Positions 1-4,788 of a DNA stretch of 4,788 bases are shown here, piece by piece. Every line of letters begins with the position of its first letter. The stretch's first letter is position 1. This stretch comes from a virus (taxonomy: Duplodnaviria; Heunggongvirae; Uroviricota; Caudoviricetes), in IMG/VR virus record IMGVR_UViG_2693429642_000015, positions 1 to 4,788 of that record. One strand, given 5' to 3'. The position numbers were made by a program, and so were the translations under genes. Below the pieces are notes generated by a model that was given only the letters and a program-made list of their open reading frames with translations, was not told the DNA's origin and made no database searches.

Positions 1-128
1 ACCTTCTGACATTCACGGTCAACCAGGCTAACACGTAGAACATGCCCTGCAGGCGTGGTGTACCACTGACCCGGACGAGGACAACGGAAAGTATGATTGG
101 TAAACCGTTTGAAAATATTCCGGATCAT
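1..128 (-). CDS. Partial CDS (5' end only, continues past window start); hypothetical early-operon protein
   Basis: ATG at 128..126 on the minus strand overlaps the TGA stop (127..125) of the upstream Rha-family gene (plus-strand 125-128 = tcat, i.e. ATGA). The frame then stays open for 42 codons to the window edge (MIRNIFKRFTNHTFRCPRPGQWYTTPAGHVLRVSLVDRECQK...). Too short to appear in the supplied ORF track. Product not recognisable from this fragment. Confidence 0.35.
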   Translation of the reverse strand, partial: MIRNIFKRFTNHTFRCPRPGQWYTTPAGHVLRVSLVDRECQK

Positions 129-985
129 TTGCGCCCCCTTACCTCTGAAGGGTTCAGCGACAAATTTATGAGACTGGCCAGTAGCGCCGCGTCGTTGATG
201 CGGTCATACAGACTTACAGCCAGCGGGGATTCGGCTTTTGCCAACATGGGATAAAGCTGCTGCAGCCAGACCTTGTGGATTACCGACAGGTGGGAGTAAA
301 GCACGCTGGCGTTATCTGCGGCATCGCTCAGCGTGGATGGCTTTGAAAGCAGTTTTTCCATCTGGTTAAAGGCATTTATGTATGCCTCTTTGAACCGGGC
401 AGCACGTTTACCAGTGAAGCCCATGGCAAGAAACGCAAAACCGTCGCGGGTGATTTGGTAACAAGGGAGTTTGCGGCCTGATGCGTCGGTGTATTCACTT
501 AACACAAAATTGTGTTCAGTAAATTCAGCGGAACATTCGAGGTTTCTAATTCTATCTAAAACCCGCTCATGCCGTTTAGTAAAGTAATTAGCTACTGCAA
601 GAGATGTGGTGACAACGCGACCATTGATAATCGTGATTTCAGGGTGAGATTGGGTTGGGAGAGTAGTCATGGTGACAGCCCCTATGTTGAATTCAATGAA
701 CTCACCACCAAGGCTTTCCACGACCATATAGGTGGTGAGACGTACAGGGGTGGAAATACCGGTCAACATAGAACCCGGCCCAACCGAAGTTGGCCCTGCA
801 CGCCCCACCATAATTTGGGCGTAACGATGCTCATGACACGAAAAAACCGCATGAGCGCGGTTGTGCTCTATATTGAATTTCGGGTTTCCACGCCCGGCCC
901 CCGCTTTATAAGGTGCCTGAGCAGTGTAACGTCCCGGAATTGCAGAATCAATATGCAAACGGTTATTTGCCGTTAAACTATTCAT
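125..985 (-). CDS. Rha-family phage regulatory protein (Rha-like domain at residues ~106-190); 286 aa as drawn, alternative start at 670 would give 181 aa
   Basis: The 286-aa ORF is in the supplied track. The segment MTTLPTQSHPEITIINGRVVTTSLAVANYFTKRHERVLDRIRNL... matches, from memory, the characteristic N-terminus of Rha-family proteins (Pfam Phage_pRha-like). The ATG at 985..983 overlaps the TGA stop of the upstream CII-like gene (plus-strand 982-985 = tcat). The internal Met at 670..668 is preceded by a G-rich SD-like stretch (AGGGG, about 8 nt upstream) and begins exactly where Rha proteins normally begin. The upstream 105 codons (Gly/Pro/Arg/His-rich) are unrecognisable. Confidence 0.7.
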   Translation of the reverse strand: MNSLTANNRLHIDSAIPGRYTAQAPYKAGAGRGNPKFNIEHNRAHAVFSCHEHRYAQIMVGRAGPTSVGPGSMLTGISTPVRLTTYMVVESLGGEFIEFNIGAVTMTTLPTQSHPEITIINGRVVTTSLAVANYFTKRHERVLDRIRNLECSAEFTEHNFVLSEYTDASGRKLPCYQITRDGFAFLAMGFTGKRAARFKEAYINAFNQMEKLLSKPSTLSDAADNASVLYSHLSVIHKVWLQQLYPMLAKAESPLAVSLYDRINDAALLASLINLSLNPSEVRGRK

Positions 986-1551
986 GCGTTAGTTTCTCCA
1001 CAACCAGAAGCAATCGACGCCACGACGCCCGGAGCTGCACACTCGCGGGCGTTACTCTTTTCTGGAGCGCAGAAGATTTTGTAGACCAGTGCTGCATGCT
1101 CCTGGAGCTTCGAAATTGAAAGATACAGTTCGTCGTTAATTGCTGTTTTCTCATGCGGTTCCACTACCCCATCTTCGATTGCCGAACGAATCTGCTTTGA
1201 GTAACTCCCGATCTGTTCGATGACTTCCAGCAGACGCTGGTTAATATCGGCGTTGTCCACATCCTCGACGTCAGGAAGAGACACAAAGACGCCATTTGCA
1301 GACTGCGCCACAGCGTCAGCAATGAAGTGAGTTCCACCAGCACGTTGTAAAATCATTGCCCATCCCAGCGGGAAAATCTGATCGCCATCGGCACGAAGGC
1401 GATTGAATAAAGCGTTCTCTGTTACATCCAGCCACTCAGCAGCTTCAGCGTAACCCCCCGGCAACGCCGCGATAGTTTTTCTGACAGCTTTCACGTACCA
1501 CTCAGGCTGTTTTTCTACTTTCCAGTGATGCTTACCCACGGTTAGCCTCAT
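982..1551 (-). CDS. CII-like early regulatory protein (phage 186 CII / CP76-type or YdaT-position protein)
   Basis: 189-aa ORF in the supplied track, immediately downstream of the Cro-like gene on the same strand, which is the cII position. The segment ENALFNRLRADGDQIFPLGWAMIL resembles, from memory, the HTH region of phage 186 CII-type regulators (…LRNKLNPDQPH…). The ATG at 1551 has a weak SD; an in-frame GTG four codons downstream has a GAGG SD at 6 nt spacing, so the exact start is uncertain. Being a real CDS is more certain than the family assignment. Confidence 0.6.
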   Translation of the reverse strand: MRLTVGKHHWKVEKQPEWYVKAVRKTIAALPGGYAEAAEWLDVTENALFNRLRADGDQIFPLGWAMILQRAGGTHFIADAVAQSANGVFVSLPDVEDVDNADINQRLLEVIEQIGSYSKQIRSAIEDGVVEPHEKTAINDELYLSISKLQEHAALVYKIFCAPEKSNARECAAPGVVASIASGCGETNA

Positions 1552-1582
1552 CGTTCTGTGGTTAAAAATTGAAGGTGTTCTG

Positions 1583-1783
1583 TTAATCTTTCGGATAGAT
1601 ATCCGGTCTTAAGTCAGATTTCGTAATTGCACCTGACGTGCATTGCTCAAGTTTTTTAGCCAGCACAAAACTGGCTTTTTTATAACCATTGAAAACCAGC
1701 CGTAAGTAGCCTGGTGTTGAGCCAACTTTTCCGGCCAACTCGCCCTGCTGTTCTTTGGTTAAAGAGTCCCAATACGCTTTCAT
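1583..1783 (-). CDS. Cro-like small HTH regulator (YdaS-like), 66 aa
   Basis: Minus-strand ORF; the track gives a start at 1807, but the second Met at 1783 (MKAYWDSLTKEQQGELAGKVGSTPGYLRLVFNGYKKASFVLAKKLEQCTSGAITKSDLRPDIYPKD) is preceded by a strong SD (GGAGG, minus strand 1798..1794, about 10 nt upstream). Small size, HTH-like middle segment and C-terminal LRPDI motif recall Rac YdaS / Cro-like proteins. It is divergent from the CI-type repressor gene, the classic cro position. Confidence 0.7.
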   Translation of the reverse strand: MKAYWDSLTKEQQGELAGKVGSTPGYLRLVFNGYKKASFVLAKKLEQCTSGAITKSDLRPDIYPKD

Positions 1784-1788
1784 ACAAT

Positions 1789-1807
1789 ATGTACCTCCAA
1801 TATACAT
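1789..1807. promoter_or_regulatory. Candidate operator OR-a (ATGTACC-TCCAA-TATACAT), overlapping the Cro-like gene SD/start region
   Basis: 7-5-7 imperfect inverted repeat whose half-sites (ATGTACC / ATGTATA) match those of the perfect palindrome at 1839-1857 and the PL-associated sites at 2593-2631. A weak minus-strand promoter candidate (TTTAAG 1833..1828, 16-nt spacer, TAGTAT 1811..1806) would place this site at the PR-like -10/TSS. Confidence 0.45.
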
Positions 1808-1838
1808 ACTACATGATTGAGATGAACCTTAAAGATAC

Positions 1839-1857
1839 TTGTACCCTATCGGTACAA
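1839..1857. promoter_or_regulatory. Candidate operator OR-b: perfect palindrome TTGTACC-CTATC-GGTACAA
   Basis: Perfect 7-bp inverted repeat with a 5-bp spacer, read directly from the sequence, located in the divergent repressor/cro intergenic region. Same half-site family as the sites at 1789-1807 and 2593-2631. Confidence 0.6.
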
Positions 1858-1873
1858 AGGTTTTAATTTCGTT
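1839..1873 (+). promoter_or_regulatory. Candidate PRM-like promoter for the repressor gene, giving a leaderless mRNA
   Basis: TTGTAC (1839-1844), 17-bp spacer, TTTAAT (1862-1867; 5/6 to TATAAT); the predicted start falls on or next to the A of the repressor ATG at 1874. There is no convincing SD upstream of that ATG (AAAGG is 12 nt away), consistent with leaderless translation as for lambda cI from PRM. Weak -35 match, so tentative. Confidence 0.3.
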
Positions 1874-2548
1874 ATGAAAACAGTCCATGACATCCGGCGG
1901 TCTAACGCCAGAAAACTGAGAGATGGTGTTGGCGGGAATTCTTCCTTTGCCACCATGATTGATCGCGAGCCAACCCAGACCAGCAGGTTTATGGGAGATG
2001 GTGCTACTAAAAATATCGGTGACAGCATGGCACGGCACATCGAAAAATGTTTCGACCTGCCTGTCGGATGGCTTGATCAAGAACACCAGACAACAAACAT
2101 CACAAAAAAACCTGATGTTTCAATTACTAACAAACAAATAACGTTAGTCCCTGTCATATCATGGGTACAGGCCGGAGCATGGAAAGAAGTTGGCTATTCT
2201 GAGGTTGATTTGAGCACAGCAGAAACTTATCCCTGCCCTGTACCCTGTGGCGAAATGACTTATATCTTGCGGGTGATTGGTGATTCAATGATTGATGAGT
2301 ACCGCCCGGGAGACATGATTTTTGTAGATCCTGAAGTCCCTGCCTGCCACGGTGACGACGTTATTGCATTGATGCACGATACAGGCGAAACCACCTTTAA
2401 GCGGTTGATAGAAGATGGAACACAGCGTTACCTCAAAGCATTAAACCCAAACTGGCCTGAACCTTACATTAAGATCAACGGTAATTGCTCTATAATTGGC
2501 ACAGTAATTTTCTCAGGAAAACCAAGAAGATACAAAATAAAGGCCTAA
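1874..2548 (+). CDS. cI: CI-type prophage repressor: N-terminal DNA-binding (HTH-like) domain plus C-terminal S24 (LexA/CI-like) autopeptidase domain
   Basis: 224-aa ORF in the track. The C-terminal region VIGDSMIDEYRPGDMIFVDPEVPACHGDDVIALMHDTGETTFKRLIEDGTQRYLKALNPNWP...GTVIFSG aligns by eye with the lambda CI / LexA catalytic domain (GDSM serine nucleophile, TFKRL lysine). The linker motif VQAGAW (Ala100-Gly101, nt 2171-2176) matches the lambda CI Ala-Gly autocleavage context VQAGMF. Divergent from the Cro-like gene and followed by an intrinsic terminator. Confidence 0.85.
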   Translation: MKTVHDIRRSNARKLRDGVGGNSSFATMIDREPTQTSRFMGDGATKNIGDSMARHIEKCFDLPVGWLDQEHQTTNITKKPDVSITNKQITLVPVISWVQAGAWKEVGYSEVDLSTAETYPCPVPCGEMTYILRVIGDSMIDEYRPGDMIFVDPEVPACHGDDVIALMHDTGETTFKRLIEDGTQRYLKALNPNWPEPYIKINGNCSIIGTVIFSGKPRRYKIKA

Positions 2549-2559
2549 TCAATATTTAT

Positions 2560-2582
2560 AACCTGCTTCGGCAGGTTTTTTT
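2560..2582 (+). terminator. Rho-independent terminator of the repressor gene
   Basis: Stem AACCTGC (2560-2566) / GCAGGTT (2571-2577) with a TTCG tetraloop, running into a T-tract (2576-2582), 12 nt after the repressor stop codon (2546-2548). Confidence 0.7.
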
Positions 2583-2586
2583 ATAC

Positions 2587-2614
2587 TTGACAATGTACCC
2601 TTGAGATACATAAT
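2587..2614 (+). promoter_or_regulatory. PL-like sigma70 promoter (early-left promoter)
   Basis: TTGACA (2587-2592, perfect -35), 16-bp spacer, CATAAT (2609-2614; 5/6 to TATAAT). Predicted TSS about 2621. Interdigitated with operator-like repeats, the arrangement expected for a repressor-controlled early promoter. Confidence 0.6.
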
Positions 2615-2631
2615 GTATCTAAAAGAAACAT
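2593..2631. promoter_or_regulatory. Tandem candidate operators OL-a (ATGTACC-CTTGA-GATACAT, 2593-2611) and OL-b (ATGTATC-TAAAA-GAAACAT, 2613-2631)
   Basis: Two adjacent 7-5-7 inverted repeats with the same half-site family as the OR sites. The junction forms a perfect palindrome GATACAT-A-ATGTATC (2605-2619) spanning the -10 hexamer. OL-a lies in the promoter spacer and OL-b covers the -10/TSS. Confidence 0.5.
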
Positions 2632-3097
2632 GTCACAGGCAAGATTAAACAAAATTTGGTTGTAACACGGCGTATGGCACATGCGTCGTTAGCGGTCTGG
2701 GGACGTTAAAGGGGACAATCCACTCCTTGCTCGGGCAAACAAACCAGGTAGCCGGAATGTGCAAGTCAATGAGGATGCTGATAAGACGCCTAACCAGCGT
2801 GGCGGTTCGGTTTGACACCTGGGAAGAGACCAGGGTGCAACGATGAGGGCATTTATGGAACCGCGACAAAGTGTGGTGCCGTAACTGGCTAAGTGCTCTC
2901 AGCGTTGTGGTGAATGCGCAGGCTGATGCACGAAAGACATTGCAGCTATTGCGGAAAAGAGCTGTTCGGCGGGGCAATTAAACGCCCGTGAGAGTCTGAA
3001 ATAACCGCAAGCCGGAGATCAGCATCGGTCACCACAGCAGCCACTGCTTTGGCGGTACCAGTTTGTACACTTGCTTCCGGCTGGTACCGCTCTTTTT
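2621..3097 (+). ncRNA. Candidate untranslated early-left transcript or long structured leader (about 480 nt, no credible ORF) between the PL-like promoter and a strong terminator
   Basis: From the predicted TSS to the terminator, stops occur in all three plus frames; the longest ATG-initiated plus-strand ORF is 29 aa, and others are 11-25 aa without good SDs. The only track ORF here (minus 2645..2977) has a TTG start, no Met and a low-complexity Arg-rich translation. GC is about 54% by hand count versus about 40% in the adjacent rdgC-like gene. Several local hairpins are visible (e.g. 2817-2823/2831-2838, 2970-2988). Transcript status is inferred, not demonstrated. Confidence 0.3.
3051..3097 (+). 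terminator. Strong rho-independent terminator (tL1-like) upstream of the rdgC-like gene
   Basis: Perfect 10-bp stem GCGGTACCAG (3052-3061) / CTGGTACCGC (3081-3090) enclosing a 19-nt loop, followed directly by TCTTTTT (3091-3097). Confidence 0.65.
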
Positions 3098-3220
3098 ACA
3101 AAACAGAGAAGAGCATCACCGGACGACGGGCTCATAACCCAATCCACCCGGGCGGCTGCCACCGCAGGTGTTCTTCTCTGTTTTGTGGAGAAACTAATAT
3201 CTTGTGCAGAGGAAAATAGA

Positions 3221-4138
3221 ATGAAATTACCAAAATTTCGTAACGCAATTGTGTACCGAGCAACATTACCTAGTATACAGGCTATTGAAGGTCATCTTCT
3301 CGAACTCCCTTATTCTGAAATCGGGGAAACAGAACTTTCACGGTCCTCTTTTGTAGAGAATCCTGTCACTGGTGAACTGGTAACTCCGATATCTGGTGGG
3401 TACGCAATGGTAATCCGTCATGATCAGAAAATAATTCCCCGACATGTCGTCATGAAAGAAGCTAATTCTCGAATCCAAACAATCGAAAATATGTCCGGGA
3501 ATAAATTAAAGCGTGCCGAACGACTGACCATTATTGATAACGTACGAGTAGATCTATGCAAACAGGCATTTGTTAAGTCTACGCTGATTCTTGCATTGTA
3601 CAGCACTGATGAGAAATTATTGGTAATCAACACAACCAATAAAATAATAGCCGGTATGGTATGCGCAATGCTGATTAAGGTTGTCGGTTCAGTGAAAACA
3701 GAAACAATCAACATCAGTGATATCAAGAATGGACTGACTACACGCCTGAATAACTACATCAATGGTGCAGCCAATGCATTTGAAGGATTCACTGTCGGAA
3801 ATTATATTCAGCTATCACGCTACGCAGATCAAAAGGAAATTATTCGCTACTCAGCTGAGCATGAGTCAATTCAAAGCGAACTGGCCGATAGCCTTAGTAG
3901 TAGTTTCACTGCTGATAAAATGGAGTTATCCGGTTGCGGTGTGACCTTCATTCTTACCGAAAATTTCCATTTTTCGCGCATCAATACTCAATCTCAGACA
4001 TTTAATGATGAAGATGATAAAGCATTCCAGTGGCGTCATCAGACTGGCGCTGACCTTTTCCAATTCAGCAAGGTAGTTAATTTGATGTGTGACCTTCTTT
4101 CTTACAAAGAAGATAAAAGCCAAAATCCAACAACTTAA
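3221..4138 (+). CDS. RdgC-family recombination-associated protein (phage-encoded), 305 aa
   Basis: ATG at 3221 preceded by SD GAGGA (3209-3213, 7-nt spacing). The N-terminus MKLPKFRNAIVYRATLP... parallels E. coli RdgC (MLWFKNLMVYRL..., from memory), with further collinear similarity through the first ~170 residues. The track's TTG start at 3071 lies inside the terminator and is rejected. AT-rich coding sequence typical of phage genes. It may correspond to the CPS-53 yfdQ position, but I cannot confirm that. Confidence 0.75.
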   Translation: MKLPKFRNAIVYRATLPSIQAIEGHLLELPYSEIGETELSRSSFVENPVTGELVTPISGGYAMVIRHDQKIIPRHVVMKEANSRIQTIENMSGNKLKRAERLTIIDNVRVDLCKQAFVKSTLILALYSTDEKLLVINTTNKIIAGMVCAMLIKVVGSVKTETINISDIKNGLTTRLNNYINGAANAFEGFTVGNYIQLSRYADQKEIIRYSAEHESIQSELADSLSSSFTADKMELSGCGVTFILTENFHFSRINTQSQTFNDEDDKAFQWRHQTGADLFQFSKVVNLMCDLLSYKEDKSQNPTT

Positions 4139-4143
4139 AAAAA

Positions 4144-4185
4144 TTGCAGCAATCATCCCATGTCAAATGGGCTGGATTGCTGCAA
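4144..4185. repeat. Long interrupted inverted repeat / hairpin in the rdgC-like to yfdR-like intergenic region
   Basis: Perfect 11-bp arms TTGCAGCAATC (4144-4154) / GATTGCTGCAA (4175-4185), plus an inner 5-bp stem CCCAT (4157-4161) / ATGGG (4167-4171) with loop GTCAA. An A7 run (4137-4143) lies immediately 5' on the plus strand, so on the minus strand the hairpin is followed by T7, a terminator-like configuration for minus-strand transcription. Confidence 0.5.
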
Positions 4186-4228
4186 TCAAAATTCAGAGCG
4201 GTGCAGCGCATATAACGTGGAGAACAAA

Positions 4229-4765
4229 ATGTCATTTATTAAAACTTTTTCCGGGAAGCATTTTTATTATGACAAGATAAATAAAGACGACATCGTGATT
4301 AACGATATCGCGGTTTCCCTTTCAAATATCTGCCGCTTTGCCGGTCATCTTTCTCATTTCTACAGCGTCGCCCAACATGCGGTGCTTTGCAGCCAGCTGG
4401 TACCGCAGGAATTTGCTTTTGAAGCATTAATGCATGATGCAACAGAAGCGTATTGCCAGGACATCCCCGCGCCACTGAAACGCCTTCTTCCTGACTATAA
4501 ACGGATGGAAGAAAAAATAGACGCCGTAATCCGTGAGAAATACGGGTTACCTCCTGTTATGAGCACGCCAGTGAAATATGCCGATCTCATTATGCTGGCA
4601 ACCGAACGTCGCGATCTCGGGCTTGATGATGGCTCTTTCTGGCCAGTACTGGAAGGTATCCCGGCAACAGAAATGTTCAAAGTTATTCCACTGGCTCCGA
4701 GCCATGCCTACGGGATGTTTATGGAGCGCTTTAACGAGTTATCGGAGTTACGCACATGCGCATGA
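4229..4765 (+). CDS. yfdR: HD-domain 5'-deoxynucleotidase-like protein (YfdR-like), 178 aa
   Basis: ATG at 4229 with SD GGAG (4219-4222, 6-nt spacing). The track's upstream ATG at 4160 lacks an SD and lies inside the hairpin. The translation carries the HD motif (HLSHFYSVAQH...MHDATEAY). Length and sequence match my recollection of E. coli K-12 CPS-53 YfdR, but this should be verified by search. Confidence 0.75.
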   Translation: MSFIKTFSGKHFYYDKINKDDIVINDIAVSLSNICRFAGHLSHFYSVAQHAVLCSQLVPQEFAFEALMHDATEAYCQDIPAPLKRLLPDYKRMEEKIDAVIREKYGLPPVMSTPVKYADLIMLATERRDLGLDDGSFWPVLEGIPATEMFKVIPLAPSHAYGMFMERFNELSELRTCA

Positions 4766-4788
4766 ATGTTTTCGAAATGGAAGGGTTT
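4756..4788 (+). CDS. Partial CDS (start only); next gene of the yfdR-like operon, possibly yfdS-like
   Basis: ATG at 4756 with SD GGAG (4744-4747, 8-nt spacing), in frame with a second ATG at 4762 that overlaps the yfdR-like TGA stop (ATGA). Open to the window end (MRMNVFEMEGF...). Identity cannot be judged from 11 codons. Confidence 0.35.
   Translation, partial: MRMNVFEMEGF

Follow-up and report, generated by a model that had tools for sequence, protein, structure and literature searches.

Three described systems bear on the early-left operon reported here, in which a gene for an RdgC-like DNA-binding protein is followed by yfdR and the start of yfdS, and which lies in 4,788 nucleotides of a virus of the Caudoviricetes (IMG/VR record IMGVR_UViG_2693429642_000015, positions 1 to 4,788; this whole stretch is called the window). 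The first is the yfdP-yfdQ-yfdR-yfdS-yfdT set of CPS-53 (KpLE1) in E. coli K-12, where inhibition of replication initiation required yfdQ together with yfdR and one of yfdS and yfdT at raised copy number, and where deletion of yfd genes gave no phenotype; YfdR binds domain I of DnaA in a Phe46-dependent manner, moderately inhibits the binding of DiaA and DnaB, and was reported to have 5'-deoxynucleotidase activity, with nucleotide affinities described as far below YfbR's (Noguchi and Katayama 2016, PMC4776307). The second is the lambda Rex system, whose RexA protein has a fold in common with RdgC (Adams et al. 2024, PMC11077077). The third is a set of RdgC homologues next to cI in lambdoid phages; the 2025 paper that noted them takes the fold common to RexA and RdgC as grounds for proposing a RexA-like role for them, perhaps from the cI transcript, and describes a yfdP/yfdQ/yfbR-like trio as common in early-left operons and of unknown function (Zheng, Casjens et al., PMC12315714).

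The most fitting description of the operon in the window is a series of slots into which alternative cassettes fit, and not an obligate two-gene module, because a cassette has been exchanged exactly, the upstream neighbour of YfdR is variable, and 51 of 98 RdgC loci are without YfdR within the DNA examined (a few of these contigs end at or just after the RdgC-like gene). At a probability of about 0.55, we read the early-left locus as a whole as independent accessory genes, set in slots behind a repressor-controlled promoter. Genes of these kinds are known, as is the kind of place that they occupy, and their pairing is one of several interchangeable arrangements. Positions 956-3197 and 4184-4788 of the window are 93-98% identical to many prophages and phages (e.g., cdtI, Ayreon and the SLK172 prophage), and between these flanks phages of that type hold yfdP-yfdQ where the rdgC cassette (3198-4183) stands here. 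Comparison with the yfdP-yfdQ phages places the breakpoints at 3197 and 4184, and homology resumes at 4184-4189, coinciding with the 3' arm of the hairpin between rdgC and yfdR. In 72 viral loci whose YfdR is near-identical, the upstream neighbour was YfdQ in 58, RdgC in nine and neither in five, which, together with the absence of YfdQ from the window, weakens the claim of the earlier note, a reading made from the DNA letters, that the two genes form a module.

Seen from the other gene, the first open reading frame (ORF) that the early-left operon has beyond its cI-side leader encodes the RdgC-like protein in nearly all of the 98 loci, and YfdR follows directly in 47 of them. Most Klebsiella-type loci have a small ORF and a ParB-like gene in place of YfdR, and this arrangement is another alternative filling of the early-left slots. 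Klebsiella phage ST101-KPC2phi6.3 (L009, 5023-8316) carries an RdgC-like gene, a 300-bp ORF, a ParB/Spo0J-like gene and a DGQHR-domain gene, without YfdR; a further locus (L010, 5023-7245) has the first three but not the DGQHR gene. Allele identities are uncoupled, since an RdgC of 90% identity pairs with a YfdR of 68%, and an RdgC of 69% with a YfdR of 70%; strict co-inheritance of RdgC and YfdR was therefore rejected, the neighbours being variable as well. The adjacency of the two genes nevertheless recurs in divergent pairs (RdgC 47-60%, YfdR 54-65%; Serratia, Ewingella and Buttiauxella). The arrangement of the whole window was found in only two of 5,426 complete E. coli genomes, and the RdgC-like gene in just 24 of them. 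Because RdgC-like and YfdP-YfdQ are clean alternative cassettes, they offer a natural experiment on the share of the first slot in the YfdR/DnaA effect.

The order of an RdgC-like gene and a YfdR-like HD-domain gene, which had been proposed from the letters alone, was confirmed by profile and BLASTP searches, with significant similarity for both proteins; both belong to annotated families, and PGAP already names both. The RdgC-like ORF begins with an ATG at 3221 preceded by AGAGGAAA, and its homologues are all about 305 amino acids long. Along its whole length it matches the Pfam RdgC family (PF04381), scoring 108.5 bits where the cut-off is 25 (residues 6-280 align with profile positions 3-278 of 298); it also matches phrog_724, and E. 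coli RdgC (PDB 2OWL) was matched by sequence with an E value of 1.4e-9 and 17% identity. The base, centre and finger domains of the RdgC monomer fold are present. The NCBIfam equivalogs NF001460-62 did not reach their cut-off (best 87.8 bits against 330), and the best NCBIfam subfamily score was 91 against 227. Because of these low scores and the 17% identity to chromosomal RdgC, the protein is assigned by sequence to a separate prophage subfamily; it also differs from the E. coli chromosomal protein in being prophage-borne and the first gene of a repressor-controlled early-left operon. Residue roles were taken from Briggs et al. 2010 (PMC2965237) and compared in a pairwise alignment to 2OWL that is uncertain at 17% identity. 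In this alignment, the fingertip residues R97, K98, K100 and K101 of E. coli RdgC correspond to N94, K95, K97 and R98 (three of four basic); of the gate residues, F120 is kept as F117 and R118 is replaced by Q115; and of the horseshoe interface (Q212, E218, H222 and K227) only E218 is kept, as E220. Four distant RdgC-like homologues (P0111, P0113, P0116 and P0119; 37-38% identity, 376-385 amino acids) bear an extra FtsK-gamma (PF09397) winged-helix domain, as would fit a phage subfamily whose role is directed at DNA.

The second protein is an orthologue of K-12 YfdR (174 of 178 residues identical over the full length, 98%). Its HD motif is kept, AQH and MHDATE aligning with the same residues of 2GZ4, and a Pfam YfbR-like match spans this motif just below the cut-off (24.3 against 25.9); PGAP labels the protein a 5'-deoxynucleotidase. 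At this identity, it is plausible that binding to DnaA domain I and 5'-deoxynucleotidase activity can be transferred from the K-12 protein. As in K-12, yfdS lies downstream in the same orientation and its start overlaps the stop codon of yfdR, which suggests that the two genes may be translationally coupled. The visible N-terminus of YfdS (MRMNVFEMEGF) is identical to K-12 YfdS and to the full gene in a prophage (L001) whose locus is 98.9% identical. The K-12 operon thus shares yfdR, yfdS and the early-left position with the window; unlike the window, it has yfdP and yfdQ (DUF2303) in place of the RdgC-like gene, and it has lost the immunity region and leader, so that only window positions 4189-4788 match.

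Control by the repressor, also claimed before, is supported at the sequence level, because the operator motif found in the promoter spacer recurs at both OR sites. The best sigma-70 match in the region directly follows the cI terminator, whose counterpart is annotated as a terminator in phages Ayreon and SfV, and the operator TGTACCCTTGAGATACA (2594-2610) sits in the promoter spacer. The motif TGTACC-N6-RTACA occurs at 1790, 1840 and 2594, i.e., three sites against 0.09 expected by chance; the sites 1790-1806 and 1840-1856 form an OR pair between cro and cI. The host phage belongs to the lambdoid "no Rec module, high Chi" class. In prophage L001 (1-21073), which is 98.9% identical to window positions 956-4788, no recombination module was found between rdgC and int, and its 21 kb contain 13 Chi sites (GCTGGTGG), ten of them on one strand, where 0.74 are expected; the window itself has one (1334-1341, minus strand). 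Phages of this class are proposed to rely on host RecBCD and RecA (PMC12315714).

From these data we would take the locus to be the part nearest the promoter in the early-left (pL-type) operon of a Chi-rich, lambda-like temperate phage with neither N nor a recombination module. In the lysogen, CI on the operator within the promoter would keep the operon off. After induction or infection, transcription would start near 2621, cross a non-coding leader of about 600 nucleotides, whose elements are the pseudoknotted RNA, the terminator-like hairpin and, beside the ribosome-binding site, the Y-shaped hairpin, and then reach the accessory genes, with RdgC-like in the first slot, YfdR in the second and YfdS in the third. 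By homology, the RdgC-like protein might form a ring dimer, a non-specific DNA clamp that limits strand exchange and co-protease activity of RecA, and YfdR would be an HD phosphohydrolase whose K-12 counterpart binds DnaA domain I. Most likely the two proteins act independently as non-essential modulators of host DNA transactions and not as an obligate two-protein machine.

Several points weigh against this picture. The recurrent RdgC-YfdR adjacency could reflect joint function and not only conserved gene order. Ring formation is not assured, because Q212, H222 and K227 of the horseshoe interface differ in the pairwise alignment. The RdgC-like protein may also have diverged in function from chromosomal RdgC, because its scores are so far under the equivalog cut-offs. 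The functional picture would, moreover, be drawn from homologues. Finally, it is odd for phages of a class thought to rely on recombination by host RecBCD and RecA to carry a RecA inhibitor; a relative of such an inhibitor in a Chi-rich, recombinase-less phage is a pointed oddity, and one that can be tested.

The most novel feature of the locus is the RNA of the leader (2621-3220), which holds two structures that are apparently undescribed. The region 2549-3197 is conserved and mosaic, and parts of it occur, without annotation, in 2,689 of the 5,426 E. coli genomes; PGAP has no annotation in 2549-3220. That this stretch is coding was rejected: substitutions relative to homologues of 87-89% identity are spread 17/14/16 over the codon positions, and the indels measure 10, 8 and 22 nucleotides. 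Profile searches found no family for the 110-amino acid minus-strand ORF 2645-2977 or the 56-amino acid ORF 3049-3219. A tRNA or tmRNA remnant was likewise rejected (ARAGORN finds none), as was a known RNA family, since Rfam 15 at permissive thresholds gave nothing above 24 bits in 2549-3230 and no match to the copies of the leader element in Uetakevirus and P7. A literature search with the invariant RNA sequences returned only unrelated primer matches.

The first structure, which we call module b, measures about 170-250 nucleotides, consists of five helices and a pseudoknot and contains an invariant 19-mer, GGUAGCCGGAAUGUGCAAG, at 2747-2765 that was found in at least 120 IMG/VR contigs. Among 33 sequences of less than 94% identity, 98.0% of the cells are paired against 26-48% with slid partners, ten pairs are changed on both sides (one of them in the pseudoknot), and none of 500 shuffles reached the score; RNAalifold with seven sequences gave ten compensatory pairs. 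Copies of module b also occur in Uetakevirus phages, about 100 nucleotides upstream of tRNA-Arg(UCU), and in the C1-controlled ban operon of P1/P7, where the P7 copy lies between tRNA-Ile and ban; in every case it is the transcribed strand that carries the element. The terminator-like hairpin that follows is a probable internal terminator, at which transcription would end, because its stem covaries: 21 of 26 distinct variants form a stem of 9-13 base pairs (-18 to -23 kcal/mol) followed by T5-7, and the stems differ in sequence through compensatory changes. Its T-run is used by the base of the second structure, the Y-hairpin, whose arm A bears the near-invariant sequence CAUAACCCAAUCC. RNAalifold with 18 sequences of the Y-hairpin gave 39 pairs, 14 of them with compensatory changes, and 97.7% are paired against 41-57% when slid (0 of 500 shuffles). 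A covariance model locates a single copy in each phage, in every case immediately 5' of the first ORF, be it rdgC or yfdP. The C1-controlled tRNA-ban operon of P7 (L005) contains a stretch that the Y-hairpin model hits weakly (32 bits, 1125-1224), a short block at 1204-1241 that matches window positions 2892-2929, and module b at 2501-2684; RNA modules are therefore common to two unrelated kinds of early operon under repressor control.

In lambda, a large hairpin in the N-leader abuts the first ribosome-binding site, as the Y-hairpin does here. The window resembles lambda, with its RNase III hairpin, in having structured RNA between pL and the first early-left gene, and HK022, with its put RNAs, in having a structured early-left leader and no N homologue. 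Unlike the putL/putR pair, the Y-hairpin is present once per phage; the elements are larger, include a pseudoknot, and begin some way in, about 45 and about 470 nucleotides from the point where transcription is predicted to start, whereas put begins at +1. Neither the covariance model nor nhmmer with module b on the HK022 immunity region detected a sequence relation to HK022, and a put-like pair was rejected on this ground and because of the single copy. We infer that the leader elements would act in cis on read-through, processing or translation of the early-left operon in N-less phages, and they may explain how early-left genes are expressed without N protein. A more far-reaching and tentative reading is that two undescribed classes of cis-acting phage RNA form a protein-independent device replacing N, by antitermination past the internal terminator or by control of processing or translation, in a large group of N-less, Chi-rich lambdoid phages, with the RdgC-like protein tuning host RecA where growth depends on RecBCD/RecA.

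If the genes in the slots were instead one host-takeover module, as the earlier note proposed, the RdgC-like protein would fill the role of YfdQ and, with YfdR and YfdS, block DnaA-dependent initiation at oriC early after induction. The RdgC-like gene does hold exactly the position of YfdP-YfdQ before yfdR, the K-12 phenotype does need a first-slot protein together with YfdR and YfdS or YfdT, the adjacency recurs across divergent lineages, and the yfdR/yfdS overlap suggests coupling. The paper on YfdQRST and DnaA exists and says what the earlier note states of it, but the effect needed yfdQ, which is absent from the window, where yfdR is complete and yfdS begins; of the proposed orthologies, YfdR (by BLASTP) and the YfdS N-terminus stand and YfdQ does not. 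The RdgC-like protein showed no relation to YfdQ by BLASTP or profile-profile comparison, and a YfdQ model (pLDDT 75) gave no match to RdgC or RexA. Since YfdR stands with neither partner in five of 72 loci and RdgC without YfdR in 51 of 98, the alleles reassort independently, and the K-12 effect was seen only at multicopy, we regard a single takeover module as unlikely.

A RexA-like function, in which the RdgC homologue is made with the repressor, binds DNA and biases the lysis-lysogeny switch or joins in superinfection exclusion, is also doubtful here. In nearly all 98 loci the gene keeps its place directly to the cI side of the early-left region, the fold is shared with RexA (PMC11077077), and the RdgC homologues for which the role was proposed lie likewise just to the cI side of the operon in phages of the same class (PMC12315714). 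The protein in the window has, however, the RdgC fold proper and not that of RexA, no RexB partner is adjacent to it, and instead of co-transcription with cI a repressible promoter of its own is predicted. A terminator, the operator-bearing promoter, the long leader and a second terminator-like hairpin separate cI from rdgC, which argues against expression on the cI transcript.

A component of a defence system was rejected, as PADLOC, whose library covers defence and not counter-defence systems, gave no match. Early-left operons often carry anti-defence genes, this phage class has no RecBCD inhibitor, and one screen had overexpressed E. coli rdgC as one of the triggers of a retron toxin/antitoxin system, so an RdgC-like ring could protect the DNA of the phage, or the ends of that DNA, against host nucleases or against defence linked to RecA or retrons, with YfdR as unrelated cargo. 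We consider this highly improbable, as PADLOC gave no support within that scope, a literature search returned no published evidence for phage RdgC in counter-defence, and Chi-rich phages are thought to use RecBCD and not to avoid it (PMC12315714).

Table 1. Predicted features of the window, with position, strand and evidence.
Feature	Position	Strand	Evidence
Rha-type regulator	125-985	-	ORF list and profile searches
CII/YmfL-like protein	982-1551	-	ORF list and profile searches
Cro/YdaS-like protein	1583-1807	-	ORF list and profile searches
cI-type repressor, LexA/S24 peptidase family	1874-2548	+	Pfam Peptidase_S24, E 1.5e-26; phrog_4 transcriptional repressor
Intrinsic terminator at cI end (7-bp stem, UUCG loop, T-run)	2560-2582	+	Terminator scan
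Early-left promoter (pL-like), TTGACA-16-CATAAT	2587-2614	+	11 of 12 consensus positions
Module b, pseudoknotted RNA	2668-2839 (core), optional 3' extension to about 2912	+	Covariation
Module b, P1	2668-2688		
Module b, P2	2692-2699/2745-2752		
Module b, P5	2786-2789/2797-2800		
Module b, pseudoknot	2792-2795/2809-2812		
Module b, P6	2818-2834		
Module b, P7	2758-2761/2836-2839		
Terminator-like hairpin (stem 3051-3061/3081-3091, T5 at 3093-3097)	3051-3097	+	
Y-shaped hairpin, directly 5' of first early-left ORF	3093-3191	+	Covariation
Y-hairpin, outer stem	3093-3117/3167-3191		
Y-hairpin, arm A	3119-3130/3138-3151		
Y-hairpin, arm B	3152-3154/3163-3165		
RdgC-family DNA-binding protein, prophage subfamily, 305 amino acids	3221-4138	+	Profile and structure-family matches
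Intercistronic hairpin rdgC/yfdR (12-bp outer stem, no T-run)	4143-4186	+	RNA fold -29.4 kcal/mol, z -3.4
yfdR, HD-domain phosphohydrolase, orthologue of K-12 CPS-53 YfdR	4229-4765	+	98% identity; phrog_318
yfdS 5' end (first 11 codons; DUF551 family in K-12), cut by window end	4756-4788	+	

The six-frame ORF list and profile searches revealed a standard lambdoid immunity region across the window. The counterpart of cI in near-identical prophages is annotated as ymfK or LexA family, and the stretch between cI and the RdgC-family ORF comprises about 670 nucleotides without a credible gene. On the minus strand, Rfam matches to C4 antisense RNA (82 bits, 728-815) and isrK (58 bits, 840-916) fall inside the 5' part of the 286-amino acid "Rha/Ash" ORF. 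This ORF and its Pfam Phage_ASH match probably overlie a P1 immI-like C4/isrK RNA control region, and this region (728-916) probably precedes a shorter Rha/antirepressor gene.

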